Assembly (NCBI GenBank): GCA_964577565.1
Contig: CAZNZL010000001.1
Location: forward strand, 78,566 to 142,565
DNA: 64,000 bases
Origin: an uncultured Candidatus Saccharibacteria bacterium
GTDB lineage: Bacteria > Patescibacteriota > Saccharimonadia > Saccharimonadales > JAGQNJ01
Direction: 5' to 3'
Shown here in pieces: positions 25,214-48,500 of this stretch. Positions within the stretch are counted from its first letter, which is position 1. Every line of letters starts with the position of its first letter. The notes beneath the pieces are model-generated. The model was given only the letters and a program-made list of their open reading frames with translations, was not told the origin of the DNA and ran no database searches. Position numbers and translations under genes: made by a program.

Positions 25214-25771
25214 GTGTTAAACGAGACAAATGAGACACAGCAAGGACCTTTATGCAAAATCAATTGTGATAAGATTAAGGCTATGCAGAAATTTACTCAA
25301 AAATATACAATCATTTGTTTGCTAGAAGATATTAAAGAAGGATATGAATATCCTTCATCAAAATGGCCCCTTCATACTACCCTTGCGGACACTTTCTCCA
25401 TAGATAAATCCATACATGAATTAGAGGACCTACTGGATCGCATTGCTGCAAGCTCCCGGGGTACAGAGTTGGTCGCTACACACAGCGAATTCTTTGGCCC
25501 TACTCAAGAAATAAAGGTTACAATTTATGAAAAAAATGAAGGCATCAAAAAGCTTCATTATGACATAGTAGAAGCATTGCAAGATCTAGGCGTAGCCTTT
25601 AACGATCCGCAGTACACAAAAGACGGGTTTAAACCACATTCAACCGTCCAGAGTCACGCTGAAGTAAAAGTCGGAGATATAGTTAGGGTAAATAATTTAG
25701 CTATCGTCGATATGTTCCCCAATAAAGATCCTTTCCAAAGGAAAATCTTAAAAAAAGTTAGCTTAAAATAG
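25214..25771 (+). CDS. 2H phosphoesterase superfamily protein (LigT-like)
   Basis: Two HxT/S motifs (PLHTTLAD and KPHSTVQS) at the spacing typical of 2H enzymes. The likely true start is the internal Met (MQKFTQ). Confidence 0.55.
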   Translation: MLNETNETQQGPLCKINCDKIKAMQKFTQKYTIICLLEDIKEGYEYPSSKWPLHTTLADTFSIDKSIHELEDLLDRIAASSRGTELVATHSEFFGPTQEIKVTIYEKNEGIKKLHYDIVEALQDLGVAFNDPQYTKDGFKPHSTVQSHAEVKVGDIVRVNNLAIVDMFPNKDPFQRKILKKVSLK

Positions 25772-25775
25772 TAAG

Positions 25776-26390: not shown

Positions 26391-26430
26391 CGATTGTCTA
26401 TTAATTACTCGAGAAAGATGGTACTATGGC

Positions 26431-32321: not shown

Positions 32322-32374
32322 AATAAGAAAAATTATAAACTAAAGTAGTTAAATAACAAAAAATATATTATTAC

Positions 32375-33427: not shown

Positions 33428-33465
33428 TATATAATTAAGAGTAATCTAATACAACAATAAGGAGA

Positions 33466-34671
33466 ATGATGGCAGGCCCCGGCGCATATTATTTTGGCAA
33501 AGAAGAACGCAAAGAAGTAATGGACGTTTTATCAAGCGGACATTTATCCAGATATGGGGATCCTAATGACCCAGGATTCAAAAAAAAGGTGTATAAATTT
33601 GAGCAGGAATTCTCTGCATACTGTGAAAGTAAATATGCGGTCGCAACAAATTCTGGCACTGCATCTCTTTTAATCAGCTTGCTAGCTCTGGGGATTGGTC
33701 CCGGTGATGAAGTTTTAGTTCCTGGCTACACCTACGTAGCTTCAATATCATCGATCGTACATGCCAGGGCTACTCCAGTATTGGTTGAAATAGATGAGTC
33801 CCTAACAATAGACCCAGATGATATTGAAAGAAAAATAACCAATAATACAAGAGCAATTATGGTTGTACATATGCTTGGTAATCCGGCTGCAATGGATGCT
33901 ATATGCGCAATCGCTAAAAAGCATAAGCTACATATAATAGAGGATGGCTGTCAAGCTGCTGGCGCGTCATTTAGCGGTAAGAAAATTGGTTCCTTTGGAT
34001 CAACTGGCGCATTTTCGTTAAACCGGTACAAGAATATTGCGGCTGGCGATGGCGGAGTGGTTGTTACCGACGACGAAGAGTTATACAAACGACTTTTTGC
34101 TATACATGATCAAGGGCACACGCCTAATCGCATAGGAAAAGATGCAACAGGCAGTTTAGTTGGCTTAAACTTTAAGATGAATGAGCTAACGGGCGCTGTG
34201 GCACTGGCCCAACTTAGAAAACTCGATACCATGCTAAAAGTTTTAAGGCAAAATAAAGCAAAACTAAAAACGCTAATTGGTGAGATTCCAGGGGCTCAAT
34301 ACAGAAGAATCAATGACCCTAACGGAGAGTGTGCCACACTCTTATCGATAATTTTTGATGATAAAAGCAGAGCCGAAGAAGTTGCCGAAAGGTTAGCTAC
34401 GCGAACGCTTATTCATTCAGGGTGGCATGTTTACAGAAACATGAATCAAATTATTGAACATAAGACTCCGACAGAGAATTGGTCTCAACCTTCACGTTAT
34501 GCCCACCCTGGCGACCTTCCGATTACCGATGATATTCTATCGAGAACTATTAATCTCAGCATCGGCGTTGTTGATGCGGGCTTGGGCTCGGCTTTCGGTA
34601 TACATATTAACTCTAATGAGCAAGAAATACATAACGTAGCTGAAAAATTAAATAGGGTCCTAAAATCGTAA
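33466..34671 (+). CDS. DegT/DnrJ/EryC1/StrS family PLP-dependent aminotransferase
   Basis: NSGTASL, an HMLGNP-type region, and FSLNRYKNIAAGDGG (Lys-containing PLP motif). It is divergent from the oxidoreductase gene. Confidence 0.85.
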   Translation: MMAGPGAYYFGKEERKEVMDVLSSGHLSRYGDPNDPGFKKKVYKFEQEFSAYCESKYAVATNSGTASLLISLLALGIGPGDEVLVPGYTYVASISSIVHARATPVLVEIDESLTIDPDDIERKITNNTRAIMVVHMLGNPAAMDAICAIAKKHKLHIIEDGCQAAGASFSGKKIGSFGSTGAFSLNRYKNIAAGDGGVVVTDDEELYKRLFAIHDQGHTPNRIGKDATGSLVGLNFKMNELTGAVALAQLRKLDTMLKVLRQNKAKLKTLIGEIPGAQYRRINDPNGECATLLSIIFDDKSRAEEVAERLATRTLIHSGWHVYRNMNQIIEHKTPTENWSQPSRYAHPGDLPITDDILSRTINLSIGVVDAGLGSAFGIHINSNEQEIHNVAEKLNRVLKS

Positions 34672-34731
34672 CTTATTATGATCGGAGTTGTGTCCAAATC
34701 TATATACTAAGGTGTATGGTAATTTGGACAA

Positions 34732-35379
34732 ATGGCAAAGTTAGTGAGATATTATAGGCATATGCAACAATCAATTCCGTTTTTGAGATGGTTTGAAAAA
34801 GATAAAAAACGAAAAAGCAGTATTACTAGTGTTGCGCCGGAAGCACTATATGTATTTGTGATTGTTATGTCATTCAATTCTTGGCCAACGAAATTAAATA
34901 TGGTCAGTGATTACATATTCTTTGCGATATGGGCGTTAGTTGCAGGGATGTTGTTTGCCTTAGCGATAGACAACGAAAGAACAATGCTTCTCAAAAACGA
35001 GATGATAAGCAAGTTATTGCTCATTGTACTTGTATATCGGTTGGCTGAATCTGTTCGGCTCGAATCATTTAGCAATATTCCCGATGCACTCTTTGGCACG
35101 GTGATACTTGGAGGTTTTCCGTATCTCTTGTTTCAAATTTCTCAAGGTAAGTGGATAGGTGGAGGTGACGTAAAACTTGGTTTCGTTGCTGGATTATTAT
35201 TAGGCTGGAAACTGGCCCTAGTTGCACTAGCTTTATGGGTGATGTTCGGTTTACTGGCGTTTTTGTTGATCAAGGTATCTGAAACAAAAAGTAATTCTAG
35301 AATACCGAGTGGCGTCATATGGGTGGTAATAGTATTCGTCACCTTTTTATATGGTGAAAAGCTAATTAGTCTACTATAA
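34732..35379 (+). CDS. Prepilin peptidase (A24)-like membrane protein
   Basis: Multiple TM helices and GGGDVKLGFVAGLLLG (the second catalytic Asp motif of A24 peptidases). No N-terminal methyltransferase region. Confidence 0.5.
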   Translation: MAKLVRYYRHMQQSIPFLRWFEKDKKRKSSITSVAPEALYVFVIVMSFNSWPTKLNMVSDYIFFAIWALVAGMLFALAIDNERTMLLKNEMISKLLLIVLVYRLAESVRLESFSNIPDALFGTVILGGFPYLLFQISQGKWIGGGDVKLGFVAGLLLGWKLALVALALWVMFGLLAFLLIKVSETKSNSRIPSGVIWVVIVFVTFLYGEKLISLL

Positions 35380-35548
35380 ATTTACTTTTCGTGGTAGAGA
35401 AGCCTTCTATTCTGTCGTAATACATTCGTTTTAATGGGCCTGGGCCGTCCTTCTGGTAATAACAAATATGGTTACCACAATGCTCACAGCAAATATCGAG
35501 CATTCTTGACCATCCGCCACGAGCTTTCTTGTACTTATCGGTTTTCAT
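35366..35548 (-). pseudogene. Truncated duplicate of the zinc-ribbon gene
   Basis: The first ~55 codons are identical to 24143-24436. Homology then ends at the R1 boundary (35384) and the frame runs into unrelated sequence. Confidence 0.55.
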
Positions 35549-35654
35549 ATCTTAATTATCCCATAATTACTGATAAGGGTTTCAATTCTATTCTGGGTAT
35601 ACAAAAAGTCAGAACCATTTTCACAGTTCTGACTTCATCTTTTCTGGCTTGGCT
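35384..35654. repeat. Direct repeat R1, copy b (271 bp)
   Basis: See 24272-24542. Confidence 0.85.
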
Positions 35655-35667
35655 CCGGGGATAGGAT
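35648..35667. repeat. attL-like 20-bp direct repeat (copy of the tRNA-Asn 3' end)
   Basis: CTTGGCTCCGGGGATAGGAT is identical to 44719-44738. Confidence 0.75.
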
Positions 35668-35821
35668 ACGCTTCGCTTGCACGGATCTCGCTTGATCGGT
35701 GCAAGCACCTGCACGCTCAATCATGTACGAACCTTCGTTCGCTTTGCTCACTACAAGATTCTCATCTTCGCCATAAAAACAAATGAGTCTACCTAGAACA
35801 TAAAAGTTCGAGCCAGACTCG

Positions 35822-36008
35822 TGGCTCCGGGGAAAGGATGGATCAAAAAGATCCGCTGCGTCGCTTTCTCGAAGCTAGCTTCTGCGACAGCTCCTTGCGA
35901 GCGTACCTACGACCTTTCTGTCTGCTATCGCATCCAGGTTCGTAGTTTCAAACCCTACCCAACCAATGAAAAAACGACCCTACAAAAAGAGTCGCTTTTC
36001 CATGGCTC
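35822..36008. repeat. Direct repeat R2, copy b (187 bp)
   Basis: See 25000-25186. It starts TGGCTCCGGGGAAAGGAT and ends TGGCTC. Confidence 0.8.
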
Positions 36009-36122
36009 CGTCTAGTGGAAACTCTACGAACCGCCAGCAATAACTTTGAGGATTATGAGTTTGAGGATTTGGCAGCCGCTGTTAAGCAATATGAGCCTGA
36101 ACTTGCGTTATCGTTTAGCGAG

Positions 36123-36485
36123 TTATAAACCTTTGAACAACTGTTCAAGTGACATATCAAGTGATTTAGCGATTTTAAAGAGTGTAGATAGTGTTGGTTT
36201 TCTGCGACCTTGCTCTATAAAACCCATATGTGAGCGGTCTATACCACTATTAGCAGCCAGCTTTTCTTGGCTCATACCCTTATCATTACGCCCTTTAACA
36301 ATACGTTTGCCAAGCTCGGTATAGATGTGGTCAACAGATGATTGTTTCACATCTTTTAGCGTATTGCTTACAATTGTAAGTAACCACTGACAAATGTCAG
36401 CTAATGGTATATACTGATGACAATTGTAATCAAGAAAGGACAATTCGTTATGGCAGATAAAAGTAAAAATTGGTTCGTAAGGCAC
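36123..36485 (-). CDS. XRE-family HTH transcriptional regulator
   Basis: ELGKRIVKGRNDKGMSQEKLAANSGIDRSHMGFIEQGRRKPTLSTLFKIAKSL. The true start is probably the internal GTG near 36350, which would give a roughly 75-aa protein. Confidence 0.75.
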   Translation of the reverse strand: MPYEPIFTFICHNELSFLDYNCHQYIPLADICQWLLTIVSNTLKDVKQSSVDHIYTELGKRIVKGRNDKGMSQEKLAANSGIDRSHMGFIEQGRRKPTLSTLFKIAKSLDMSLEQLFKGL

Positions 36486-37025
36486 AAAATACTTACAGGT
36501 ATTTTGGTGTTAGTTGTACTTGGTGTGATTGTGAGTGCGGCAGGTGGTGGTACTGACACAAGCAATAACCAAGCAAACAACAGTGGTTCAAGTGACACCT
36601 CAGCGAGTGAAAAGCCAGCAGCTACAACTGCTAAGATTGGCGAGGCTGCACGGGACGGCAAGTTTGAGTTTACCGTTACTGCTTTCAAGTGTGGTGCTAA
36701 AACACTTGGCGATAATGAGTTTCTACGAGAGGAAGCCCAGGGTCAATTCTGTGTGATGGACGTAACTGTTAAGAACATTGGCAACGAGGCTCAAACTTTC
36801 TTTACATCTGAACAAAAAGTTAAAAATGCAGAGGGACAAGAGTTTTCTAATGACACCTCAGCAGAAATTGCCGTTGCAGGCGGCGATGCTTGGGTAAACG
36901 AGATAAACCCAGGTAACACAGCTAAGGGTAAAGTAGTGTTTGATGTGCCTGCTGACGCAACTATCGTTTCAGCTGAACTACACGACAGCTCATTCTCAAA
37001 TGGCGTTGAAGTAAAACTGAACTAG
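36450..37025 (+). CDS. DUF4352-like secreted/membrane-anchored protein
   Basis: Start taken at MADKSKNWF (GAAAGGA upstream). TM helix, a Ser/Thr/Asn-rich linker, then FEFTV...CVMDVTVKNIGNEAQ...GKVVFDVP, typical of DUF4352. Confidence 0.65.
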   Translation: MADKSKNWFVRHKILTGILVLVVLGVIVSAAGGGTDTSNNQANNSGSSDTSASEKPAATTAKIGEAARDGKFEFTVTAFKCGAKTLGDNEFLREEAQGQFCVMDVTVKNIGNEAQTFFTSEQKVKNAEGQEFSNDTSAEIAVAGGDAWVNEINPGNTAKGKVVFDVPADATIVSAELHDSSFSNGVEVKLN

Positions 37026-37191
37026 CACCCTAATTACAGGTTGGACAAAACTTAGGCAAGTCTTAGGCAGATTTGCCTATTTTTGTGTCAAGGTATAGGG
37101 GGGTACTGCCCCTTAGTTCCCAGATTTGGGATACCGCATATGAAATACCGAATTTTTTCGGCTGCAAAAATACCAACGTTTTTTTGGTCGG

Positions 37192-37845
37192 CTATTTATT
37201 GCCCAAATTACTATCAATGACAGGTTTTAATGCCTCAAAAACCTTTTGGTAACCTGCTTGGTTTGGGTGCAAGCCATCACTGTAAAGGTAATTTTTTACC
37301 CAAGTGTCTTTATTAATATCAACGCTTACAAAATCTATGCCCTTGTTCTCACACACTTGCTTAGTAATGTCGTTGAACAAGGCACGCCGTTCATTCGTAA
37401 AATATGAAACCTTGCCATCGCCAAACGGACTTGGCTTGGGACTTGTTTTCGTCTCATCTACAAAACCATTGCTCACGAAAATAACTTTTTCGCTGTACTG
37501 TTGCAATGTTTTAAAAAGGTTTGTAACTTTATCTTTAAAATCATCTGGCGTACAAACAAAATTATCAGGTTCATTTTCAGCCTTTGCGTCATTGCCGCCA
37601 ACTGAAACAATAGTCACTACATCACTACTGCGAGCATACTTGTCAAAAATCCAAGCTGCACTATCTGCTACAAACTCTATTGTTGAGCCTGCTTTTGAAA
37701 AATTGAAAACCTCATACTTTTCGCCAACTCCATTAGCACCATACATTTTTGAGTGCAGATATGCCTTAATAAGGTCACCCCAGCCATCTGTTTCTGCACC
37801 AACACCATAGACGCTACTAGCACCAATAATAAAAAACTGTTTCAT
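37192..37845 (-). CDS. SGNH/GDSL-type hydrolase (paralog of 9473-10117)
   Basis: GASSVYGVG, GGNDA and DGLHPN. It is collinear with the chromosomal copy over its full length. Confidence 0.8.
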   Translation of the reverse strand: MKQFFIIGASSVYGVGAETDGWGDLIKAYLHSKMYGANGVGEKYEVFNFSKAGSTIEFVADSAAWIFDKYARSSDVVTIVSVGGNDAKAENEPDNFVCTPDDFKDKVTNLFKTLQQYSEKVIFVSNGFVDETKTSPKPSPFGDGKVSYFTNERRALFNDITKQVCENKGIDFVSVDINKDTWVKNYLYSDGLHPNQAGYQKVFEALKPVIDSNLGNK

Positions 37846-38336
37846 ATTCCAAGCTCGCTTACAATCTGGTTCATTGCAGGTACATATTTGTCTGGATTTG
37901 TTGCTAACTCTTGTTTCATTTGCTCAGTATCTACCCAAGCAAGCTCATCAACCTCGTTCTCTTGCATAACAAAACTGTCAACATCTCGGTCTAGTGTTAC
38001 AAAATACCACTGGCAAAAGTATGTACGAGGGTGCTTAATTAGTATTTTAGGACCTTTTTTAAACTGCTGTCCTGTTAGCCCAATTTCCTCATCTGCCTCT
38101 TTATAGATGTTTTCATCATAGGTTTCACCCTCATCAATTGTGCCAGCAACGGCAGGTCCCCATTTGCCTGGGTCTTTATCTTTTACAATTGCCCTTTTTG
38201 CAAGTAGTGTTTGACCTTTTGAGTTAGTTAGCCAGAGTGCAGACACACGGTAAATATCGGACTGAAAATCAACCTCTGAACGTTCCTTGTTTGCTACAAA
38301 CTTATCATTTTCATCAACTATTTGTATTTTCATCAT
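37842..38336 (-). CDS. NUDIX hydrolase
   Basis: Nudix box GTIDEGETYDENIYKEADEEIGL. Confidence 0.7.
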   Translation of the reverse strand: MMKIQIVDENDKFVANKERSEVDFQSDIYRVSALWLTNSKGQTLLAKRAIVKDKDPGKWGPAVAGTIDEGETYDENIYKEADEEIGLTGQQFKKGPKILIKHPRTYFCQWYFVTLDRDVDSFVMQENEVDELAWVDTEQMKQELATNPDKYVPAMNQIVSELGI

Positions 38337-39067
38337 TTACCCTTTATCGAATATCCGCCATCAGCAAGGTAGTCAGAACCAGTAATGTAACTTGCATCAT
38401 CAGACGCTAAGAACATAACAAGCGTGGCAATTTCATCTGGTTTAGCAATCCTGCCTAAAATCGTGCCGTTGTTGATACGGTTAAATGTTTCCTCGTTCCA
38501 GTCATTGACTTGGTCGGTTTCAACGTAGCCAGGGGTAACAGTATTAAAGCGAACTGACGGATAGGATTTAGCAAGTGCCTTTGTAAGCGAAATGACACCA
38601 GCTTTGGCAGGTGCATAAGTGAGCGTACTCATAGTGGCTAGATTTGAGTAACCCTTGATTGAGCTAATGTTAATGACGCTACCATTACCTTTTTCTATCA
38701 TTTTAGGCAAAACAGCTTGAACACAGTGGACCGTGCCGAGTACATTTACTTTATATTCCTCAATAGCCTTTTCGTCATCAACTTCTGATATGTCTTTGAT
38801 AAAATTACGAGCAACACCAGCGTTATTAACCAGCACATCAATTGTTCCCACTTCTTTGAGCAGCTCAGATATTGCTGAGTGAGTTGCTTGCTTTTCGGCA
38901 ACGTCAAATACAGTTTTTAGCGACCCATTTAGCTGCTTATGAACTTTGTTTAGCTCGCTACTGTCTGACTTGCCGTGAATTATGACCTTATATCCTTGCT
39001 TATGAGCAAGTGACGCAATTGCTTTGCCTATGCCTCTGCTTGAACCTGTAACTAGAATTGTTTTCAT
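38333..39067 (-). CDS. Short-chain dehydrogenase/reductase (classical SDR)
   Basis: TGSSRGIGKAIA, NNAG and YAPAKAG (YxxxK). Confidence 0.9.
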   Translation of the reverse strand: MKTILVTGSSRGIGKAIASLAHKQGYKVIIHGKSDSSELNKVHKQLNGSLKTVFDVAEKQATHSAISELLKEVGTIDVLVNNAGVARNFIKDISEVDDEKAIEEYKVNVLGTVHCVQAVLPKMIEKGNGSVINISSIKGYSNLATMSTLTYAPAKAGVISLTKALAKSYPSVRFNTVTPGYVETDQVNDWNEETFNRINNGTILGRIAKPDEIATLVMFLASDDASYITGSDYLADGGYSIKGK

Positions 39068-39085
39068 TTCATATCCTATCCTATC

Positions 39086-39811
39086 CTATACAATTGGCGA
39101 GCTTAGACCGCCATCAATTACTAACGTTGTTGCGTTAATACCATTATTTTTAATAATTTGTTCCGTTAAATCAGCTATTTCGTCAGGCTCAATTAACTTA
39201 GTAACCAAGTGTTTTTCGGATACCATTTCAGCTATGTCTTGCTCAGACATATCTTTGTTCCAAGCACTCCTAACCCAACCAGGTGATATGCCAACGACCC
39301 TTATACCCTTTGAGTGCCAACGTTTTGCATAGTTTTCGGTTAGTAGATTGAGTGCGGCTTTTGATGAACCATACATTGTAAACTGCATATCGCCCATATA
39401 TGGCTGCCCATAGGTTGACGATATGTTCACAATCACACCATTGTCATTAACTAGGCTATCAGCGTGTGCCATTAACATACCTGCTGACGTAGTGTTTATT
39501 GCAAAGTTTTTTTGCCACTCGTTCCAGTTAAGCTGTGTTTTCCAATCATCTGCCTCTGCGTAGTAAACAGCTCCGTTTACAACAACGTCGAACTTACCAG
39601 CTTTTAATACTTGTTGCATAAAGCCAGTAAAGCTCGCTTGGTCCGCAAAATCAGCTTGTACAAAAGTTGCTTTCGAATAGTCTCTCTTTAGTTCGGCAGT
39701 AATTTCGTTATCGCTATGGTAGTGTGCTGTTACCTCATAGCCCAGCTTGGTTAGTCTATCTAAAATGGCTTTGTTAACAAGGCTGTTTGCTCCTGTAAGC
39801 AGTGCTTTCAT
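39086..39811 (-). CDS. Short-chain dehydrogenase/reductase family protein
   Basis: LTGANSLVNKAI (degenerate TGxxxGxG) and YGSSKAA (YxxxK). Confidence 0.8.
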   Translation of the reverse strand: MKALLTGANSLVNKAILDRLTKLGYEVTAHYHSDNEITAELKRDYSKATFVQADFADQASFTGFMQQVLKAGKFDVVVNGAVYYAEADDWKTQLNWNEWQKNFAINTTSAGMLMAHADSLVNDNGVIVNISSTYGQPYMGDMQFTMYGSSKAALNLLTENYAKRWHSKGIRVVGISPGWVRSAWNKDMSEQDIAEMVSEKHLVTKLIEPDEIADLTEQIIKNNGINATTLVIDGGLSSPIV

Positions 39812-39993
39812 TACTTTTGCTCCATCAATTTTAGTAAATCGCTTTTTTTGTAACGTCTTAAATTACGTCCGCCAATACGGACAGCTTTGAGCGTGCCGTT
39901 CTTGTCCCAGTTACGCAATGTGTTTGGGTGTACTTGCAGCAACTCGCTTGCTTGTTTCAGTGTTAGTAATTCTGGTAATTCTTTCTGTGACAT
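39811..39993 (-). CDS. Excisionase/MerR-type HTH DNA-binding protein
   Basis: LLTLKQASELLQVHPNTLRNWDKNGTLKAVRIGGRNLRRYKKSDL, the canonical excisionase-family HTH pattern. Confidence 0.75.
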   Translation of the reverse strand: MSQKELPELLTLKQASELLQVHPNTLRNWDKNGTLKAVRIGGRNLRRYKKSDLLKLMEQK

Positions 39994-40029
39994 AAAACCT
40001 CACAATTGATACTATTATGATACAAGAGT

Positions 40030-41313
40030 GTGAACACCTGCGATAGTGCAGTTTTGGAAAATGTGATGAAAAAAGATGACAAGCAGCCCAAGAAACCAAA
40101 CAAAAAGCCGCAATCAAAAGCGGCTAAGCAGCCTGTCAAAAAACCAAAGACCGATGACGTTAAACCAGTCGAGATAACTCTACCTGCAAAACAAACACCG
40201 CCAGAGGCAACGCCAGCACAAGTTTTTCGTGATAGACGTATCGCTAGGCAAAAGAGTTATGACCTAGATTTGGACGCTAAAAAGTATCGTTCTGGGTTGT
40301 CTGTTGATGAGTGGCAAGAGTTACTGAAAAAAGACCCTAGTCTATTAACGCCAAGACAAGCAAAGCAACTTGAACAAGCCAACGAAATGGCTATGGAAAT
40401 AGCAAAGCGTATATCGGCTCAGTATGACTTTTCAGGCATTGCCAAGATGTTTAGTACGCTGGAAACCCTGCCAATGGCTCGTATTGCACAAGACGCTCAA
40501 CGGTTTGCCCTCGCAACCCAAAAACTACAAACCAGCTTTATTGTGCCTGCTCAACAGCTCGTCTCAATACAGCAAAAACTCGCTATTACTACTGGCATAA
40601 TCGGACAATCGTTTATGGCAACTGCTCACGCTGCAAATCTTACTCGCAGTCTGTTTGAAAGCATAAACTCAATGAGCGAAATGATTGTTAAGGCATTTGC
40701 TGTTGACCTAGCCTCAATCAGTACGACATTTGCTAAGTTTACGCCTGTTGAAACAATCAACCTCGATGACATTGAGGTAATTGACCGTGACGGCAATGTA
40801 ACCGTTGTTAGCGACACAAGCCGCACAAAACGCATAGATGATGACTACCAGCTTATAGAAACGGCTAGGCTAGATTTGTTGTTTACCGAGCTAAAAGCCA
40901 CACGCAGCGAGCTTAGCGAGGTAAAACGGCTCGTTACAGGCAAGCTGGAAAGTGGTATTACAAAAATTGCATATGCAGATATTAAGTTTTTGATTGAAAG
41001 CTCAAAGCTGCTTATCAAAGGCTATCCAGTGTTCGTACAACGCAGCTCAAAGCAAGCCAAGTTTTGTAACTTTTTCTTTAACTCAATAGAAAACTTTACA
41101 AAAAAGTGGGACGTTACACATCTGATGGAACTGGTATTTACAATGCATATTGGAACTGATGGCAGTGAGGACAACTTTAATGCGATTATCAAAGGCTATG
41201 TTGAGGCGTTGAATATCAAGATTGCAGCAGCTACAAAGGGTCAAGTAACTGACTTTTTCGTACTTTTGAACTACGAGGTTTATATAAACCCAAAATACTT
41301 ATCTAATCTGTAA
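40030..41313 (+). CDS. Hypothetical protein with Lys/Pro-rich N terminus
   Basis: 427-aa ORF, divergent from the excisionase-like gene. No motif recognised. Confidence 0.55.
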   Translation: MNTCDSAVLENVMKKDDKQPKKPNKKPQSKAAKQPVKKPKTDDVKPVEITLPAKQTPPEATPAQVFRDRRIARQKSYDLDLDAKKYRSGLSVDEWQELLKKDPSLLTPRQAKQLEQANEMAMEIAKRISAQYDFSGIAKMFSTLETLPMARIAQDAQRFALATQKLQTSFIVPAQQLVSIQQKLAITTGIIGQSFMATAHAANLTRSLFESINSMSEMIVKAFAVDLASISTTFAKFTPVETINLDDIEVIDRDGNVTVVSDTSRTKRIDDDYQLIETARLDLLFTELKATRSELSEVKRLVTGKLESGITKIAYADIKFLIESSKLLIKGYPVFVQRSSKQAKFCNFFFNSIENFTKKWDVTHLMELVFTMHIGTDGSEDNFNAIIKGYVEALNIKIAAATKGQVTDFFVLLNYEVYINPKYLSNL

Positions 41314-41372
41314 AATCACAATTATCCACAAGTTTAAACTCGGCTAAATGCTGAGTTTGTCGTAATGGCTGT

Positions 41373-41561
41373 ATGCAGCAGCAAGACAGCCAACAACCTA
41401 ACGCCATCAGCTTGCAAGAGTTTCTTGCCGAGCTAGGTCGAGATGACGTAGCCACTGCCAACCTAGTTGGCTATTTTGACGTGCTGATAGAAATGGACCT
41501 TGAACTAAAAGAGCAAGAAAGGATTGATGATGAACGAGGAAACAAAACAACGGATAGCTGA
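41373..41561 (+). CDS. Hypothetical small acidic protein
   Basis: 62-aa ORF in the co-directional element gene string. Confidence 0.35.
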   Translation: MQQQDSQQPNAISLQEFLAELGRDDVATANLVGYFDVLIEMDLELKEQERIDDERGNKTTDS

Positions 41562-41832
41562 TAGCGTTTTGGCTTGGTGTAACGACTGCCGTCTTTATGC
41601 CGCCCAAGTGGTTATATGGAACGCTGAACTAAGCGAGGTTGAACATTTGATAAAGATTGCTGAGGGTTACTTACCTGCCGATATTACAGGAGATGAAACC
41701 TCAAACAAGATTAAGTCTTTGTTGAGCCAGTTGGACCACAAGCAAATGCGTGCAATACGAGCATACATAAGTTTAACACTTGAAGGTCCGTGTAAAACGG
41801 AACAGTGCCAAAAGGATTGCAATGACAATTAG
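41524..41832 (+). CDS. Hypothetical small protein
   Basis: 102-aa ORF whose stop overlaps the next start. Confidence 0.4.
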   Translation: MMMNEETKQRIADSVLAWCNDCRLYAAQVVIWNAELSEVEHLIKIAEGYLPADITGDETSNKIKSLLSQLDHKQMRAIRAYISLTLEGPCKTEQCQKDCNDN

Positions 41833-42169
41833 CGAGGTAAACATAGTGCCGATTAAGCCAAATAGTGGTCTTGTAGCATTTGCCAGCGTGGTAATTGATG
41901 GCAGTCTCTATATTGGCTCAATTGGCATACATAGTCGCTTAGACGGCACGTATCGTATTACCTATCCGACCAAGAAAATCGGTAAAAAAGAGTTGAACCT
42001 GTACCACCCAATTAACAGGGTTGTTGGCAACCTGATTGAGCAAGCCGTTTTAGCTGAGTGCAAGCGGCTTTTTAAAGGACGTGATGACGATGATAGACAC
42101 AATAAAGCTGGTAATCAAAATGGACAAACCATTGCACGCAAGAGCCAACTTCCAGCCAACGCTGGATAG
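41822..42169 (+). CDS. SpoVG-like protein
   Basis: Start taken at MTISEVNIVPIK. The pattern V..IKPNSGLVAFASVVIDGSLYIGSIGIH....G.YRITYPTKK......LYHPIN resembles SpoVG. Confidence 0.55.
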   Translation: MTISEVNIVPIKPNSGLVAFASVVIDGSLYIGSIGIHSRLDGTYRITYPTKKIGKKELNLYHPINRVVGNLIEQAVLAECKRLFKGRDDDDRHNKAGNQNGQTIARKSQLPANAG

Positions 42170-43211
42170 CATTAACCCAGACTACTTTGGTTATTTTAAG
42201 GCTGTGTCAAATCCGTCAGCCGCATATAAGAAACTCGGCAAGTATCAGCCACGACTAACATACACACAACGACCAAGAGGCTATAAACGTGCCAGTTACG
42301 AGCTTGCAATTGAGCTTAGCCTACCGAAAATTACTTTTGGCAATAACTTTGACGAACTAACCAACGCTGACTACTCGCTTGTCATTAGCCAATTGCAGCT
42401 GACGTTGAGAGAAATGGGCGTTTGGCTATTCACTAAGCAAATTGAGCAAGCTGAGGTACGAGCGTTGCATTACAGTAAAAACTTTGTGTTCAACGATTAC
42501 ACCTCTTGTTCTGCTGTGCTACAAATGCTCAGAGCAGCTGATATTAGCAAAACCTACGATGTACAAAATACCGACTTTCGTAATGGCGGCTATGTACTGC
42601 ACGTTCACACTAATTCGCTTGATATTGCGATTTACGACAAATTAGCCGACTTACGACAGTCAAAGGTTAGTGAAAAACGCACACAGGAAAAAGATAACTT
42701 TGTGCAGCTTGATTTGCTAGACCAATTGGCTCGCACACAGCCAGTGGCAGTTATGCGTTACGAGGTACGACTAAACGGCAAAAAGAAAATAACAGACGCA
42801 TTAAATGCAGTTGGGTTTGACGAGCCACTGACTTTTAAAAACGTGTTTTCTGCTGAGTTAGCAAAGGCATTGCTGCAACACCATTGGCAAAACTTTTTCA
42901 GCAACCTGCCTAAGCTGGCACTAGATAGTAATGACCCTCACAAGATATTGGCTAACATTTTGCAGACTGATGAGCTAAAAGGTCCGCAACAGGCAGCGGC
43001 ACGGCTTGGTATGGCTCTATTGCTTACAAAAGCTGACCAACGCCACGTTAGAGCATTGTTTGAGGACCGTTTTGGTAAACACGCTTGGTCACGATTAAAG
43101 CCGCTGACAAAGCCAACACAAAAAGTTCAATACAAAACGATAGTAGGCATTAACCAAATGCTTGAACAATTTGAGCCGACAGTAATGGACCAAATAAAAG
43201 GCTCATTATAA
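42081..43211 (+). CDS. Putative phage/plasmid replication-initiation-like protein
   Basis: The N-terminal MIDTIKLVI... pattern and the ~370-aa size resemble gene II/X-type or Rep_trans initiators. Assignment is tentative. Confidence 0.35.
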   Translation: MMTMIDTIKLVIKMDKPLHARANFQPTLDSINPDYFGYFKAVSNPSAAYKKLGKYQPRLTYTQRPRGYKRASYELAIELSLPKITFGNNFDELTNADYSLVISQLQLTLREMGVWLFTKQIEQAEVRALHYSKNFVFNDYTSCSAVLQMLRAADISKTYDVQNTDFRNGGYVLHVHTNSLDIAIYDKLADLRQSKVSEKRTQEKDNFVQLDLLDQLARTQPVAVMRYEVRLNGKKKITDALNAVGFDEPLTFKNVFSAELAKALLQHHWQNFFSNLPKLALDSNDPHKILANILQTDELKGPQQAAARLGMALLLTKADQRHVRALFEDRFGKHAWSRLKPLTKPTQKVQYKTIVGINQMLEQFEPTVMDQIKGSL

Positions 43212-43262
43212 TTGTCACTAATTGTTATATAATGGTATATAGTAACAGAGAAAGGATAATCT

Positions 43263-44735
43263 ATGAAAACTAAGGCATTTTTAATAGCAAGGGTATCAGA
43301 CCCTGAACAACGGCAGGCACTACCTGCACAGGTTTTACGGCTTGAAAAATACGCAAAAGATAAAGGCTACGACTACGAACTATTTGAGTTTGATGAAAGT
43401 GCATATAAAGATAACCGCAAAACTTTCAGCAAGATTGTTGAAAGCATACGCAACTACCCTGAAAACTGCATTGTGGTCTTTGATAAGATTGACCGCTATA
43501 CAAGGGATAGTTCGGCTGATGAGGTTAAGACACTGAACAAGCTGCGTGAGGACGGCAAGATTGAAATACACTTTCCGTCTGATAACTTGGCTGTTCATAA
43601 AAACTCGCCAGCACCTGACTTGTTCCGTCTAGGTATTGGCGTTGCACTTGCTCGCTACTACTCTGACAGCATTAGAGATAATGTTAAACGCCGCTTTGAG
43701 CAAAAGCTGAACGATGGCGAGTGGCCTGGTAAAGCACCGATTGGCTATGTAAATCACAGGATTAGCGACAAAGAAACAACGGTGCTACTTGATCAAGAGC
43801 GAGCTGGCTATATCAAAAAGGCATTTGAGCTGAGACTAATCGGTACACCATATAGAGGCATTGCCGCCCAACTCAAAAAAGAGGGTTTGCGAAACAATAC
43901 AGCCAAGCGTACACCAATTGGGCAAGGCTATATTGAGCAGATACTAAAAAATCCGTTCTACTATGGCGTTATGCGGTACAACGGCAAGCTGTACCCTCAC
44001 AAGTACGAGCCACTTATCAGCCGCAAGATGTTTGATAAGGTCCAAGCCGTAAATGAACAGCGAGGCACTAATCGCACCAAGAAACAAGCAATTGACTACA
44101 CCTTTAACGGCTTACTGAAATGTGGCAGTTGCGGTTGCAGTATTTCGTCTTATACAGCCAAAGGTAACGTCTATATGCAATGCAGCAAAGGCAAAGGTCC
44201 GTGCAAACAGCCACACATCAAAGAAAAGGACCTTGTGCCGCAGGTTGCTGCTATGGTTGGTCAGCTTGAAATGAACGAGGATATTGTTAACTACGTTATT
44301 GATGAACTACGCAAGCACCACGATAACCAACAGCTGTATTATGCAAATGCCATTGAGCAGACACGCACCGAGTACGACACAATACAGAAAAAGCTGCGTG
44401 TTTTGTATGACGATAGGCTCGATGGGCGTATTACTCTCACTGACTATGACGAATATGTAAAGGACCTAAAAGCTCGACAAGAGCAATTAGACGAACAGCT
44501 AGTTAGCTTGACGCATAACGATAAGAGTTTTATGCTAACCAGTTCGTATCTGTTAGAGATAGCTACAAAAGCCCCTCAATTGTTTCAAAGTTCGAAAGCG
44601 GCTCTAAAATCTAAGTTATTAAGGTTTTTACTTTCGAACTTGGTAATTCACGATAAAAAGCTCGTTTTCAATCTAAAAGCACCCTTTGATGTAATCGCCG
44701 AGTGCTCTCAAACTCAATCTTGGCTCCGGGGATAG
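43263..44735 (+). CDS. Large serine recombinase (integrase)
   Basis: N-terminal resolvase-type catalytic region (FLIARVSDPEQ), a recombinase domain, a Cys-rich zinc ribbon (CGSCGCSISSY...CSKGKGPCKQPH), and a coiled-coil tail. The last 5 codons and the TAG stop lie inside the tRNA-Asn 3' end. Confidence 0.9.
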   Translation: MKTKAFLIARVSDPEQRQALPAQVLRLEKYAKDKGYDYELFEFDESAYKDNRKTFSKIVESIRNYPENCIVVFDKIDRYTRDSSADEVKTLNKLREDGKIEIHFPSDNLAVHKNSPAPDLFRLGIGVALARYYSDSIRDNVKRRFEQKLNDGEWPGKAPIGYVNHRISDKETTVLLDQERAGYIKKAFELRLIGTPYRGIAAQLKKEGLRNNTAKRTPIGQGYIEQILKNPFYYGVMRYNGKLYPHKYEPLISRKMFDKVQAVNEQRGTNRTKKQAIDYTFNGLLKCGSCGCSISSYTAKGNVYMQCSKGKGPCKQPHIKEKDLVPQVAAMVGQLEMNEDIVNYVIDELRKHHDNQQLYYANAIEQTRTEYDTIQKKLRVLYDDRLDGRITLTDYDEYVKDLKARQEQLDEQLVSLTHNDKSFMLTSSYLLEIATKAPQLFQSSKAALKSKLLRFLLSNLVIHDKKLVFNLKAPFDVIAECSQTQSWLRG

Positions 44736-44738
44736 GAT
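44719..44738. repeat. attR-like 20-bp direct repeat
   Basis: CTTGGCTCCGGGGATAGGAT is identical to 35648-35667 and overlaps the CCA, acceptor and T arm of tRNA-Asn. Confidence 0.75.
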
Positions 44739-45052
44739 TCGAACCTACGACCTAGTGGTTACACATTACCCATTATTTTCATAATGGCATGGACTATCTC
44801 ATCATCCGGCTATTGCCGGATGCTGGGCGCTAGTGAAGGATTATTGTTGGGCTCACCTTCTAGTCTCTGAACCTTCCGAAGGGCATGACCCCACCTTCGG
44901 CTTGGCTGCGGATTACCATGTCCGCCTTCTGGCGGATTTAGGCTTCCCGCAATTCACCCAGTTTTCACTGTTTTGTTGCCAAAACAGGCTGCACTTTATT
45001 GAGTAACTCAATGTGACTACAGCCACCCGCTCTACCGCTGAGCTACCCCGGA
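44721..45052 (-). tRNA. tRNA-Asn(GUU) interrupted by a group I intron
   Basis: Exon 1 (45052-45019) is TCCGGGGTAGCTCAGCGGTAGAGCGGGTGGCTGT. Exon 2 (44761-44721) is TAACCACTAGGTCGTAGGTTCGAATCCTATCCCCGGAGCCA. Joined, they give the loop CU-GUU-AA, a 5-nt variable loop and discriminator G. The UCC...GGA-G-CCA ends match my recollection of E. coli tRNA-Asn. Confidence 0.8.
44762..45018 (-). ncRNA. Group I intron (IC3-like), 257 nt, in the anticodon loop
   Basis: The 5' exon ends in U, and the P1 guide GCAGCC (44987-44992, reverse complement) pairs with GGCUGU with a terminal U-G. The intron ends in G. Core blocks AGCCAAGCCGAAGG, GGAAGGUUCAGAGACUAGAAGG and AGAUAGUCC resemble the tRNA-Leu and Azoarcus-type introns. 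Confidence 0.75.
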
Positions 45053-45294
45053 ATAAATTGTGATATGTACTCTCGACCCTTGTGCGACTTGAGTTGTTTT
45101 TCTCTCTCGATCGCTTCAGAGCGAGTGGCAAATGATTCTTTATAAATCATCTCCCATCTACCCTGAAATCGTGCAGTATAACTTTTTGATTTATGTTTAT
45201 TATTGTGCGCAATAAGTCGCGCGTCAATATTCTGGGTCTGGCCAATGTATACTTTCTTTACCGTGGGGTTGTATATTACATATACAAAAAACAT
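45043..45294 (-). CDS. GIY-YIG nuclease family small protein
   Basis: FVYVIYN...KVYIGQTQNIDARLIAHN...AIEREKQLK. The stop codon overlaps the first 10 nt of tRNA-Asn. Confidence 0.8.
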   Translation of the reverse strand: MFFVYVIYNPTVKKVYIGQTQNIDARLIAHNNKHKSKSYTARFQGRWEMIYKESFATRSEAIEREKQLKSHKGREYISQFIPG

Positions 45295-45304
45295 ATCTGA
45301 ATTA

Positions 45305-45348
45305 TAAAACAGCCACCCTCCGGCAACTGCCGGATGAGCTACCCCGGA
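45305..45348 (-). pseudogene. Degenerate duplicate of the tRNA-Asn 5' half
   Basis: Reverse complement is TCCGGGGTAGCTCA-TCCGGCAGTTGCCGGA-GGGTGGCTGT. It equals exon 1, with the D-loop segment replaced by a 16-nt palindrome. Confidence 0.6.
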
Positions 45349-45385
45349 TTATTAATTGTGCATATTCAGGCTATCTCAAAAATAT

Positions 45386-45401
45386 GAGCTACCCCGGAAT
45401 A
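45386..45401 (-). repeat. Third copy of the tRNA-Asn 5'-end boundary (16 nt)
   Basis: GAGCTACCCCGGAATA is identical to 45040-45055. Confidence 0.5.
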
Positions 45402-45524
45402 CGAATGATTATTATATACAATTACCCTGTTTTCCACAATCCGTTTTATCTTAAAAAAGTTTATGTTTACATTATAAAAAATGCTAAAATAAGTATATTA
45501 TTAAACTGTAGACGTACAGGTAGA

Positions 45525-48500
45525 ATGGGTAAAATCAAAGAGAAGTCAAAACGCGCTGTTCGCGTTGCTGCCCACAAAGGCAAGCGCGCTACTATAAAAA
45601 CCGCTCTCACCGCTAAAAAAGCGGCAGCGTTACCTACCAAAGGCGCCAAAATGGTTGCCAACACTAAAACCTACCAAAAAGCCAAAACATCTTATAAAAA
45701 AGCCCATCACAACGTAGCCGAAACCCCCCATAAACGTCTTATGGAGCAGTCTCCTCGCTACGCTGCCTGGCACAGTTGGCAGTATAAGAAGGTTCACCAC
45801 GGCCATATACACGGTGCTGTGGTACTTGCCTGGGTATTGTTTGTAGTATCGCTTATTGGTGCTGTGGTGCCATCTGTCTCTGCTCTTAATGTTTGGGAAC
45901 AAAACGATTGGAGCGGAGGCCAAGGCACGAATACAGGGAGTCAGTATAGTACCAGTAGCAGTATTGATACCTCTACTGAAGGTCAGCTATCATTAGCAAA
46001 GTCTGATAACTACTTTTCTAATGGGGGCTTTGATTCAAATACAGATTCGTGGAATGGATATGGCTTTTCGCATGAAACCACCACAAAATATGAGGGATCA
46101 GGATCGGCCAAAATACAAGCTGGGGTGCAGTCGTCCTCAAATTTTTATGCACATACTACTTACGATGGCGCTTCTACCAGGCAGCGGCGTATGGCAAGCG
46201 GTGATCTCAATGGAGATGGTAGAGATGATGTAGCTATTGCGAATATCGATAACTACACAATATCAATTCATTGGGGTGGAGCTTCTGGCCAGCTTTCTAC
46301 ACCTACCACGGTTGCTACACACACTTCTGGCAACCCATATGATGTAAGTATTGGCGACATTAACCGTGACGGGCATTTGGATATGGTGCTTACCTATACT
46401 GCAGGCGTCAATCTTTCAGTATTTATTAACGATGGCGAAGGTGGATTTGAGCGGAGTGACTTTACGGGCATTTCAGGTCAATGTGCGCACACGTTAGGAA
46501 ACTTTAACAACGACGACTATTTGGATATTGCTGCGCTCTGCGTCCACTCAAGCAGCTACTTGGTGTACACCAATACTGGCAGCAGTACCTACTATGGTAA
46601 TTCTCCGCAACAGTTTGGCATTGGAGCTAGTGCAGGGTCAGACAGGAATATCGCAGCAGTAGATATCAATGGGGATGGATATGACGACCTGAGTGTTGGT
46701 GTGAACGGCCGGTCTGATTGCAAACTATACTATTCTTTAAGTAACGGCGGTGGATTTGAAGCTGGTACAACGGTCGATATCAATGATTGCGGCCCTACAA
46801 ATTCACAGGGCTATATGGTCGCCGGTGGTGATTTCAATAAAGATGGGTACGAAGATATTGCAGTGGGTCGCAGAACAGGTACGGGTGGCACGAGTGCAAG
46901 TAGTCGTAATATGCTTACCATCTATCTTGGGGCGAGTGATGGTGTGCTTACCTCACAAGCCGACTATGGGGCTGTTGGCAACATGTCAGTCATGGGGTCG
47001 ATGATGGTATCGGACTACGACCTAGATGGCCACCTAGATGTATCGGTGGCCAATAGCTCGAGTAATATCTCAGTTTTCTACGGGGTCGGTGATGGTACGT
47101 TTGGAAATAGAACGGAATTTCCCATGACATCGAGCGCATTTTATGCAGTAACCGGGGATATGAACGGTGATGGTAAATACGACATCGCTACATCAATCAA
47201 TAGCAGTACTACTACGGTAAATAGCGTGGGCTTATTTATAAATAAAATAGGCGGAGACGCGGTTTCTCAAAAAGTAACACTCGGTAGCGCCGGAACGTAC
47301 TATTTGAGCGCTTATGTGTATACAACGGGCGATGAGGTAACAGCGGAAGATGTAGATTTGTACCTGGATGGTAAAAACGTGCCAACCCAATATTCATCTA
47401 CGAATATTTCGGGATGGTATTCGCTGAGCGCTGAAATAGAGATCAATGAGCCAACTGAGAAAATAGCAGGAGTTATCGCTAAGCAAGGAAAAACTATCTA
47501 TGTCGATAATGTAGCCTTATACAAATTTGCTGATGCAGGTACGCTTGTCTCTGCTGTGCATGATTTAGGTTTTGGTGGTGATTGGGGGACGCTAACCTAC
47601 ACTACCTCACACCCACAATTGACTACCGTAAAGGTTAGGACAAGCGACAGTCCTACCATGGATGGCGCACCCGAATTTAGTGGCTGCCCTAGTCTTGTTA
47701 GTGGTACGGACCTCACTGATCAAAATTGCGTTACCAATAATCACCGGTATGTACAGTACCAGGTAAGTTTAGTTGCCGATGGCGAGACGCGCCCCACCTT
47801 AACAGAAATAAGCATAGCCTATGCGCCATGGGATACAACCCCGCCTGTAGCGAATGCCTCAGATATCATCATGAAGAAAGAGGCAGGCGGTGCGACAATT
47901 AATTCGAATGGTTGGACTAATGGCCCTGCCCCCTATTTTGAGTGGACCGAAGGAGCTGATGGCGAAGGTGAAAGCGGCATTAAGGGTTATTGTTTGTATC
48001 TTGGCCAAGACTCGACCGCCAATCCCGTTACCGCTAAAGGTTTGCTGGGAGCTAGTCCGCTGAATACAGACGGCGTGTGCCAGTTTGCGGTTAGTACAAC
48101 CAACATAGATTTGAGTGTTGATGGGCTCATCTCTACGGCGCTTACTACATCGGACGACCCATATTATTTGAGTATCCGTACCTTTGATAACGCCGGCAAT
48201 GTCTATGAAGAGAATGCTCAATTTCAATTTAAATTCGATAATACACCGCCTACTAATCCAGCTTTTATATCGTCTCCGTCACAATTTGTGGCTGATAAAA
48301 CAGTGACGTTAACGTGGCCTAATTCTGGAGACGGTGCACCAACTGACGCGCACTCCGGCGTTGCTGGCCTACAGTATCGCATTGGGTCAAACTCGTCTTG
48401 GTATGGAGACGGTGAGAATGGTGATGGATTATTAGAAAACGACGGCTCTTATACTACACGCGATGCGCTTGACTTCGACAACATCACAGAAGGTAACAAT

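Follow-up and report, generated by a model that had tools for sequence, protein, structure and literature searches.

The window analyzed here, a stretch of 64,000 nucleotides from contig CAZNZL010000001.1 of an uncultured Candidatus Saccharibacteria bacterium, contains a gene for a large serine recombinase (LSR) that converges on, and overlaps, the 3' end of a tRNA-Asn gene, and that closes the right-hand side of the putative integrative element with which this report is concerned (Table 1). Two identical 20-mers (CTTGGCTCCGGGGATAGGAT) are found at 35648-35667 and 44719-44738, when no such match arose in 100 dinucleotide-preserving shuffles of the window, and two more copies with two mismatches each are present at 24998 and 35820. 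A first, sequence-only reading of this DNA, which mentioned neither these two copies nor an intron in the tRNA, had noticed the identical repeats and taken the right copy for the genuine 3' end of the tRNA and the left copy for an orphan fragment, and in both respects it was right: the minus strand reads as a tRNA 5' half and a tRNA 3' half lying about 260 nt apart, and the right repeat consists of the true 3' end of the tRNA together with two bases of trailer. ARAGORN called no tRNA at the right-hand repeat in the unspliced window because a group I intron of 257 nt splits the gene in its anticodon loop (44762-45018, minus strand; Rfam RF00028, 91.9 bits for a gathering score of 50, match 44770-45011). 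Once the exons are joined between U35 and U36, the same program calls a 75-nt tRNA-Asn(gtt) with an encoded CCA.

The boundaries of the element were assessed by comparison with its relatives, namely contigs that encode close relatives of the integrase (L003, L005, and L006), loci from the GTDB species-representative genome collection (419 stretches encoding integrase relatives, from which 79 loci were kept, nearly all of them from Ca. Saccharibacteria), and six further metagenome loci obtained by a scan with the attL/attP pattern, all six of the attL type. Loci are designated below by L numbers and homologous integrases by P numbers; in terms of identity to the integrase of the window, L003 stands at 98%, L098/L099 at 469/490, L005 and L006 at 91%, and P0006 at 79%. 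In all relatives, the conserved left end (TGGCTCCG followed by TCTAGTKGAAAC, also rendered as TGGCTCCG followed by TCTAGTGGAAAC) corresponds to window position 36003, and not to 35648. This end is shared by L003, L005-L013, and the six metagenome loci, the DNA to its left being unrelated, and L005 and L006, which hold the same element with the same right flank, diverge immediately left of the octamer. BLAST homology to the relatives extends from 36003 to 44728. What follows the octamer at 44721-44728 on its right is the tRNA body in the window, a 28-nt tRNA fragment in L005 and L006, or the arm of another element in L003. Read on the opposite strand, this octamer consists of the last four acceptor-stem bases, the discriminator base, and CCA, and it is all that attL, attR, and the attP of a relative have in common, the core being 7 nt long in the clade that targets tRNA-Asp.

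Circular forms of related elements were retrieved from public assemblies, circularity being inferred from k-1 terminal overlaps and from rotated contigs. L098, a contig of 8685 nt with a 30-nt (k-1) terminal overlap, closes into a circle of 8655 bp (the unit in the window measures 8718 bp), and L099, from an independent sequencing run, reads contiguously from the integrase 3' end through CAATCT-TGGCTCCG-TCTAGTGGAAACTC into the XRE gene (also given as TGGCTCCG-TCTAGTGG-XRE). The L098/L099 junction joins the equivalents of window positions 44728 and 36003, and the two alignments of L099 to the window, up to 44728 and from 36003, overlap by exactly the eight core bases. The integrase P0006 is carried by five Logan contigs of 8742-8763 nt (L086-L090) which come from five runs, have different starts, and are perfect rotations of one 8733-bp circle, four of them with terminal overlaps of 29-30 nt; another such circle, L091, measures 10,877 bp. 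None of the junctions in L098/L099 and L086-L091 contains any tRNA fragment beyond the 8-nt (or 7-nt) core, nor any DNA resembling S4 and S5, the two tRNA-like units that separate the orphan 20-mer from position 36003 in the window. Because the attP junction of the L098/L099 circle joins precisely these two points, we delimit the element as 36003-44728 (8718 bp). The sequence-only reading had proposed instead that the 20-bp repeats bound an element of 9.1 kb; the conserved left end, the circle junction, and the rarity of long orphan fragments, which are present in 9 of 65 loci and absent from the other 56, lead us to conclude that the 20-mers are not attL and attR and that the element is not 9.1 kb long. 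The identity block used by the integrase is a short core of about 8 bp, as is typical of LSRs, and not the 20 bp that had been put forward as the recombination core; the crossover dinucleotide would be located within these 8 bp.

Sites without the element were located from an anchor on the right side of the tRNA, the ABC-transporter gene. In L102, a tRNA-Asn gene with a preceding terminator-like flank, no integrase, and no core repeats is bordered on its left by homologues of the window genes at 20424, 20860, and 21314 and on its right by the giant surface protein, the ABC ATPase, and the FtsX permease, the distance from the last shared left-flank gene to the tRNA being 1.5 kb in L102 versus 22.9 kb in the window. 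In L100, whose ABC gene is 93% identical to that of the window and whose tRNA has an identical 3' half without the intron, a non-integrase flank sits directly on the core and the tRNA and matches the left flank of the L006 attL at 24 of 27 positions. In L011, a single element sits right beside the homologue of window gene 21314, and L094 and L096 hold internally deleted elements that have kept both ends. None of the 79 integrase loci had an unoccupied Asn or Gly(GCC) site. Presence/absence polymorphism and circular forms, which the sequence-only reading had proposed to look for, are thus both encountered in relatives, and these loci and circle junctions bear out its view of an integrative element sitting at the 3' end of a tRNA-Asn gene that is kept intact.

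The comparison of integrated and circular forms also revealed what the sequence-only reading had not noticed, namely that attP lies inside the integrase open reading frame (ORF). In the integrated state, four codons (W-L-R-G) and the stop, at 44721-44735, fall within the mature tRNA, in antisense, and five codons fall within the 20-bp repeat, such that the earlier statement that tRNA sequence supplies the last five codons and the stop of the integrase is accurate for the repeat and has to be reduced to four codons for the mature tRNA. The invariant Trp codon of the integrase, TGG, is the complement of CCA. In the circle, the ORF crosses the core and continues for 41 more codons, which gives a predicted product of 527 amino acids versus 490 in the integrated form; integration cuts the ORF after codon 486-489 and leaves the codons of the tail 8.7 kb away, at attL. 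L098/L099, P0006, and P0008 have this tail as a continuous part of the integrase. In 14 of 15 unique homologous left arms, the corresponding ORF has exactly 41 codons and similarity collapses past its stop; the variable columns are distributed over the three codon positions as 16/11/31, pairwise codon differences amount to 1035 synonymous versus 706 non-synonymous, and the other two frames are full of stops. Since no ORF reading into the tail was found in the integrated state, these codon statistics argue that the tail is selected as protein and made only from the circle. Several homologous integrases are 25-40 residues longer and share the C-terminal motif W-x-x-LV-x-TLRT...YEF, conserved tails occur as well in integrases only about 50% identical to that of the window (P0042, P0052, P0055, and P0058), and another type of tail (TTIExVIT) exists, as does one conserved within the clade that targets tRNA-Gly. 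The two predicted isoforms may differ in activity, stability, or directionality and could thereby constitute a built-in sensor of integration.

As for the enzyme itself, the full-length recombinase announced by the sequence-only reading is indeed there, and it is catalytically intact. It comprises a Resolvase domain (PF00239, E = 2.5e-15, residues 6-153), a Recombinase domain (PF07508, E = 4.7e-15), and a Zn_ribbon_recom domain (PF13408, E = 1.2e-6); across alignments of 17 and 79 homologues, S12 of the ARVSD motif is invariant and R10 nearly so, and the family alignments show no variation at C287, C290, C307, and C314. The AlphaFold2 (AF2) model of the homologue P0006, with a predicted local distance difference test (pLDDT) score of 83.5 and coiled-coil helices at 339-387 and 392-417, is matched by Foldseek to full-length LSR-att complexes (9dxd/9dxh, Bxb1 9iu2, PhiC31 9tep, and 4kis), with E values from 3e-19 to 1e-11. 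A phmmer search of the integrase against PDB sequences gave no match and no solved LSR was reached by sequence (E > 0.001), so the placement among LSRs stems from the comparison of folds rather than from a sequence search. On every feature testable here the window enzyme is an LSR, the fold being that modelled for P0006 rather than for the window protein.

On this basis, the segment 36003-44728 is very likely an integrated copy of a circular replicon of about 8.7 kb, put at the tip of tRNA-Asn by a serine integrase, a reading that draws on sequence comparison throughout. The host would be a bacterium of the Ca. Saccharibacteria type (Patescibacteria), and the replicon would associate a Rep of the G2P/HUH type, a variable cargo, and an LSR. 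The recombinase joins attP, situated inside the 3' end of its own ORF, to an attB straddling the CCA end of tRNA-Asn; as attP and attB have the same core sequence, the tRNA stays intact, and its native downstream terminator ends up beyond the left end of the element. In the same reaction, the integrase exchanges its tail, going from 527 amino acids to 490 amino acids ending in W-L-R-G read antisense from the tRNA, and excision could then be performed by the short isoform together with the product of the HTH_17 gene. Several observations weigh against this reading. The circles belong to relatives, with integrases 79-96% identical to that of the window, and not to this genome, and the set of attB, attL, attR, and attP sites is likewise combined from different, related genomes; a head-to-tail multimer would yield the same junction as a circle; and exact searches for the attP of this element in IMG/VR and for a 30-mer of this tRNA in JGI metagenomes gave no match. 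With respect to the enzyme, the profile of the family finds as its nearest PDB entries the catalytic domains of IS607-like serine recombinases (3lhk, 6dgc), and the tail is modelled with low confidence by AF2 (pLDDT about 50-58). Lastly, the arrays observed at some sites (an integrase followed by the arm of another element in L003, the cassettes of L005, and S4/S5 in the window) are unexplained by the canonical attP x attB rule of LSRs.

These arrays provide the context of the orphan 20-mer, which is a genuine scar of this hot spot but an earlier one: the element of the serine integrase lies nested inside it as the innermost member of an array. The orphan is located 355 bp outside the left core of the element, with S4 and S5 in between, and beside it the minus strand can form a hairpin at about 35605-35636 (-17.7 kcal/mol, z = -3.6); in L096, the homologous flank abuts the core directly. 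S4 and S5 have the same layout: the tRNA 3' end from CCA to the T-loop, a hairpin-forming insert of 60-66 nt at the same T-loop position, the 5' strand of the T-stem, a minus-strand hairpin, and the next core, the hairpin with which S5 ends (35960-36005) having a folding energy of -22.2 kcal/mol and z = -7.5. The repeat partner of S5 is D2a, at 24997-25186, with 96% identity. Units of about 150-180 nt with an insert of 40-80 nt recur at tRNA-Asn in L013 (2224-2400), L023 (3300-3450), and L028 (3342-3490) and at tRNA-Gly in L056 (979-1125) and L072 (3062-3210), this architecture being shared by only 9 of 65 loci in all, and orphans of 18-28 nt stand left of the elements in L013, L028, L056, and L072. 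S4 shares a 25-nt motif (CTGCACGCTCAAnCnTGTACGAACC) with the equivalent unit of L023, a locus whose integrase is only 53% identical. The possibility that S4 and S5 are tRNAs was rejected, as they have no acceptor 5' strand, and a search of Rfam at relaxed threshold over 35560-36130 returned no credible family for them.

Further to the left, the older island array is delimited by D1, a 280-nt direct repeat at 24263-24542 and 35375-35654 with 99% identity between copies, in which the native terminator of the tRNA accompanies codons 1-58 of a small, zinc-ribbon-like gene whose full copy lies at 24143-24436 and had no match in an exact look-up. The two D1 copies bracket a 10.5-kb block of sugar and nucleotide metabolism genes, which points to the capture of a chromosomal flank or to island arrays having undergone homologous recombination with each other. 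This 10.5-kb segment opens with the core TGGCTCAG followed by CATACGGGTCACGG, a sequence also found after cores in L003 and L005 and encoding the ..IQVTDF.. tails of five homologue clusters. In L005, positions 900-3700 hold five single-gene units, each ending in a hairpin and a core TGGCTC(C/A)(G/C), with genes including a glyoxalase, an unknown, ABM, and ADH. A motif to the right of the core, C(A/T)TACAGGTCACGGA, recurs in that region and at window position 25181, and is found again after the intact integrase of L003 (11459). Left of the integrases, core 7-mers lie on the strand compatible with tRNA sense in 56 cases versus 26 on the other strand; at least two cores are present in 13 of 65 loci, arrays being found in only about 20% of loci. 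We infer that arrays may arise through regenerated sites made of a terminator and a core, or through alternative left-hand sites.

The alternative in which the element spans 9.1 kb (35648-44738), with the 20-bp direct repeats as recombining att cores, can invoke 20-mers identical far beyond chance, an orphan fragment accompanying an intact tRNA, which is the classical signature of islands (PMC4383910), and the comparable orphans of four other loci. It is extremely improbable nonetheless, as the circle junctions hold nothing of the tRNA beyond the core, the homology of all relatives begins at 36003, the tail ORF begins at the inner core, and most loci have no long orphan at all. The same scars can be read in another way, namely that the 20-bp repeat with S4 and S5 was left by some other element with a crossover in the T-loop (e.g., one using a tyrosine integrase), the serine element having inserted later in the rebuilt end. 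This concerns the outer layer only and is compatible with the integrated replicon described above, and we regard it as quite possible, if somewhat short of an even chance. All long orphans end at the same T-loop position, the units end in a terminator-like hairpin plus core that would recreate a usable attB, and L005 harbors a 28-nt orphan and a 2.8-kb integrase-less insert between the integrase element and the real tRNA. Conversely, no tyrosine integrase is seen in any array, a search among the ORFs listed and scanned in 19000-47500 of the window found no tyrosine recombinase gene, and the recurrent hairpin insert of 40-80 nt, followed by the T-stem 5' strand, is unlike a simple attL. Moreover, the units measure only about 170-180 nt, D2 is present twice in the window at 96% identity, and the 25-nt motif common to S4 and L023 suggests a function.

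Two other alternatives accept the boundaries proposed here and bear on what the integrase tail means. The copy in the window could be a fixed relic, its tail-less integrase being inactive and excision needing the full-length enzyme from an incoming circle: 41 conserved residues are lost on integration, deletion derivatives such as L094 and L096 are common, arrays of old layers persist at the site, and there is an archaeal precedent for an att site within an integrase gene (PMC8371274). We consider this unlikely, given that the 490-residue form retains all recognized LSR domains and its catalytic residues, that both cores, Rep, and the HTH_17 gene are intact, and that closely related circles occur in nature, which implies that excision or replication takes place in the family. 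It could also be argued that the 120 nt to the right of the left core are conserved as DNA (an attP half-site, or a terminator or operator of the XRE gene) and not as a translated tail. The first 20-25 nt must indeed hold a half-site of the integrase, the region borders on the XRE gene at its stop codon (36123), and the low AF2 confidence of the tail would fit with this view. The three-base periodicity of substitutions and the synonymous excess make it improbable, though, as do the stop at codon 42 in 14 of 15 arms with conservation collapsing directly after it, the tails conserved at the protein level in distant integrases and in the Gly-targeting clade, and the stops that fill the other frames.

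As a rule of thumb, tRNA genes are the targets of tyrosine integrases, and serine integrases enter coding genes. In the present family, a convergent tRNA abuts or overlaps the 3' end of the integrase gene in 64 of 79 loci, namely tRNA-Asn(GTT) in 33, Gly(GCC) in 27, Asp in 3, and Trp in 1, and the junction between element and tRNA is at CCA in all 65 tRNA-abutting loci. Among the 120 closest database homologues, 88 end in residues antisense to the T-loop (..DSN..), another 6 resemble the window in reaching their stop within four codons, and 10 have attP-type tails. The CCA end of a tRNA is an unusual class of target for an LSR family, as the sequence-only reading had recognized: a 2026 survey reports that serine-integrase proviruses preferentially target coding sequences (PMC13626063), and tRNA is nowhere mentioned by Durrant et al. 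Our literature search on serine integrases at tRNAs in Saccharibacteria or Patescibacteria found nothing relevant, with incomplete coverage and island databases that may hold unremarked cases. Tentatively, and with the sense that it is somewhat unlikely to hold in full, we raise the idea of a large, undescribed serine-integrase family of Patescibacteria that would use the tRNA CCA end as attB, keep attP in its own ORF such that each integration turns a long isoform specific to the circle into a short one specific to the chromosome, control directionality or stability through the isoform switch, and build integron-like arrays of single-gene cassettes and tRNA-like mini-units via alternative left-hand sites. 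On that reading, it would be the bacterial serine-recombinase counterpart of the "suicidal" integrases of archaea.

With the LSRs of phages and of integrative and conjugative elements (ICEs), such as PhiC31, Bxb1, TP901-1, the A118/LI integrase, and SprA of SPbeta, this system shares the resolvase, recombinase, and zinc-ribbon domains with a coiled-coil, an identity core of about 8 bp, an integrase gene at the end of the element, and a small helix-turn-helix (HTH) gene as candidate directionality factor. It differs from them by a tRNA CCA target in place of a protein-coding gene or intergenic site, by an attP within the integrase ORF such that the C-terminus depends on the integration state, and by a small, putative rolling-circle replicon as carrier in a Patescibacteria host. 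Islands made by tyrosine integrases at tRNAs (Islander, P4-like) have in common with it the tRNA 3' end as site, an intact tRNA, a displaced fragment, an adjoining integrase gene, and tandem accretion; in terms of the features by which Islander recognizes an island, the intact tRNA, the displaced fragment, and the integrase are all found here, and the integrase is not of the tyrosine family. The core is also unlike theirs, with 8 bp at the extreme 3' end of the tRNA when att cores of tyrosine-integrase elements average 43 bp (PMC13626063), and the downstream terminator of the tRNA is not rebuilt by the element. The "suicidal" tyrosine integrases of the SSV type, for which a built-in control of directionality was proposed, have been described as exclusive to archaea (PMC8371274). 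SSV1, pTN3, and pT26-2 have the same arrangement of an att site within the integrase gene, a tRNA target, and a product changed by integration, except that their tyrosine recombinase gene (PF16795) is split into two inactive parts, while here a serine enzyme exchanges only a tail of 41 residues. Integration-dependent immunity in the mycobacteriophages BPs and Brujita, reportedly described by Broussard et al. in 2013, is said to rely on an attP in the 3' end of a gene whose C-terminal segment is removed on integration, with a change in how the protein behaves. In those phages, truncation affects the repressor and the integrase belongs to the tyrosine family, as opposed to the truncation of the serine integrase itself at the present locus. 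The head-to-tail single-gene units of L005, each with a hairpin and a short core, resemble integron cassettes, in the absence, however, of IntI and of attI/attC, and with unit ends formed by a hairpin and a tRNA-derived core. Finally, replicons with G2P/Phage_CRI initiators (filamentous phages and rolling-circle replication [RCR] plasmids) have an HUH plus Tyr initiator of the PF05144 type, as would these circles of 8.7-10.9 kb, which in contrast to them carry no recognized morphogenesis or coat genes and integrate at a tRNA through an LSR.

From a broader perspective, the view that tRNA genes belong to tyrosine integrases only is broken by a family present in hundreds of Saccharibacteria species, with clades on four tRNAs. 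Because the last codons of the enzyme covary with the acceptor stem that they overlap, the evolution of target switching in LSRs can be read directly in these genes, and an att site in the integrase ORF would amount to a sequence-encoded sensor of integration that bears on directionality control in LSRs. Serine integrases with short sites are in use as tools of genome engineering, for which an attB at a conserved tRNA tip could offer ready-made landing sites. To our knowledge, Patescibacteria, with their tiny genomes, have very few known mobile elements or genetic tools; integrative, putatively rolling-circle replicons of 8.7-11 kb with exchangeable cargo may serve them as vehicles of gene flow, besides being candidates for a vector.

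The gene content anticipated by the sequence-only reading (LSR, HTH_17, XRE, SpoVG-like, two short-chain dehydrogenases/reductases [SDRs], NUDIX, and SGNH) is supported by Pfam and PHROG matches (Table 1). Relatives conserve a module made of the HTH_17 gene, three genes of no known function, SpoVG, Rep, and the integrase; the HTH_17 gene, whose product may be the recombination directionality factor, is kept in every related element, and the three genes gave no Pfam or PHROG match. The cargo block differs between relatives, the modules that flank it being conserved, and the XRE/DUF4352 pair adjoins attP on the circles L086 and L098. The Rep-like assignment holds at the level of the family and less so for the window protein taken by itself: PF05144 (N-terminal domain, filamentous-phage G2P) is matched by 24 of 62 homologues, with a best E of 1.3e-7, and H174, H176, and Y185 are invariant in the 62 homologues, whereas the window Rep falls below the PF05144 threshold and has only a weak match to phrog_702. 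The profile of the Rep family found no meaningful match in PDB. The circle probably replicates by a rolling-circle mechanism. A filamentous phage was considered and not adopted, no morphogenesis (pI/Zot-like) or coat genes being recognized, and the idea that the tRNA is cargo of the element was rejected, since the circles carry no tRNA.

Table 1. Features of the window at and around the element, from left to right.
Feature	Position	Strand	Remarks
Older island array	24263-35654		D1, D2a, and 10.5-kb cargo segment 25181-35649
Orphan 20-nt tRNA-Asn 3' fragment	35648-35667		Exact match; outer scar joined to the native downstream flank of the tRNA
tRNA-like unit S4	35668-35821		Between orphan and left core
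tRNA-like unit S5/D2b	35822-36002		Copy of the 190-nt repeat
attL core TGGCTCCG	36003-36010		True left boundary of the element
Detached 41-codon C-terminal tail plus stop	36003-36128	+	WLRLVETLRTASNNFEDYEFEDLAAAVKQYEPELALSFSEL, then stop; continues the integrase reading frame in the circular (attP) form alone
XRE-type HTH gene	36123-36485	-	PF01381 (HTH_3), E = 2e-12; left-end module
DUF4352 protein	36417-37025	+	PF11611, E = 2e-28; left-end module
Variable cargo	37192-39811	-	GDSL/SGNH hydrolase 37192-37845; NUDIX 37842-38336; SDR 38333-39067; SDR 39086-39811 (Pfam)
HTH_17/MerR-type excisionase-like gene	39811-39993	-	Candidate recombination directionality factor; PF12728, E = 8e-14; phrog_66 excisionase
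Three genes without known function	40030-41832	+	427 aa (40030-41313), 62 aa (41373-41561), 102 aa (41524-41832); syntenic in all related elements
SpoVG-like protein	41780-42169	+	PF04026, E = 6.5e-8; same position in L001, L005, L086, and L098
Rep, putative rolling-circle initiator (G2P/Phage_CRI-like)	42081-43211	+	HUH motif (H174, H176), Y185
Large serine recombinase, predicted short integrated isoform, 490 aa	43263-44735	+	PF00239, PF07508, PF13408
attR core TGGCTCCG	44721-44728		Right boundary of the element; complement of the last 8 nt of the tRNA (CGGAGCCA), including CCA
tRNA-Asn(GUU) gene	44721-45052	-	5' exon 45019-45052, intron 44762-45018, 3' exon 44721-44761; CCA encoded

With regard to the tRNA-Asn gene, the same intron-bearing version is present in L001, L007, and L011, and an intron-less gene in most relatives and in the very close L100. 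Group I introns of bacterial tRNA genes are known from those for Leu, fMet, Arg, and Ile, which may make tRNA-Asn an uncommon place for such an intron. Directly upstream of the tRNA, with a 10-nt overlap with its 5' end, lies an ORF for a GIY-YIG nuclease (45043-45294, minus strand; PF01541, E = 1.6e-17); together with the intron and the integrase element, it indicates that this tRNA has been invaded at its 5' end, in its anticodon loop, and at its 3' end. Two additional copies of the tRNA 5' end (TGAGCTACCCCGGA) are found at 45335-45351 and 45385-45401, and the region 45300-45348 resembles a tRNA 5' half with a hairpin in place of the D-arm. On the other side, the antisense of the last 25 or so integrase codons (44640-44722, minus strand) forms a hairpin of -23.3 kcal/mol (z = -3.4) about 6 nt downstream of the tRNA CCA, which could serve as a substitute signal for processing or termination of the tRNA when the element is integrated.

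Immediately beyond the tRNA, a gene at 45384-50402 encodes a surface protein of 1672 residues of the FG-GAP/fibronectin type. In relatives, other sequence takes the place of its N-terminal half (Laminin_G or F5/F8 type C in L005, L102, and L103), while its C-terminal 880 or so residues are conserved, which makes it a second variable region beside the hot spot.

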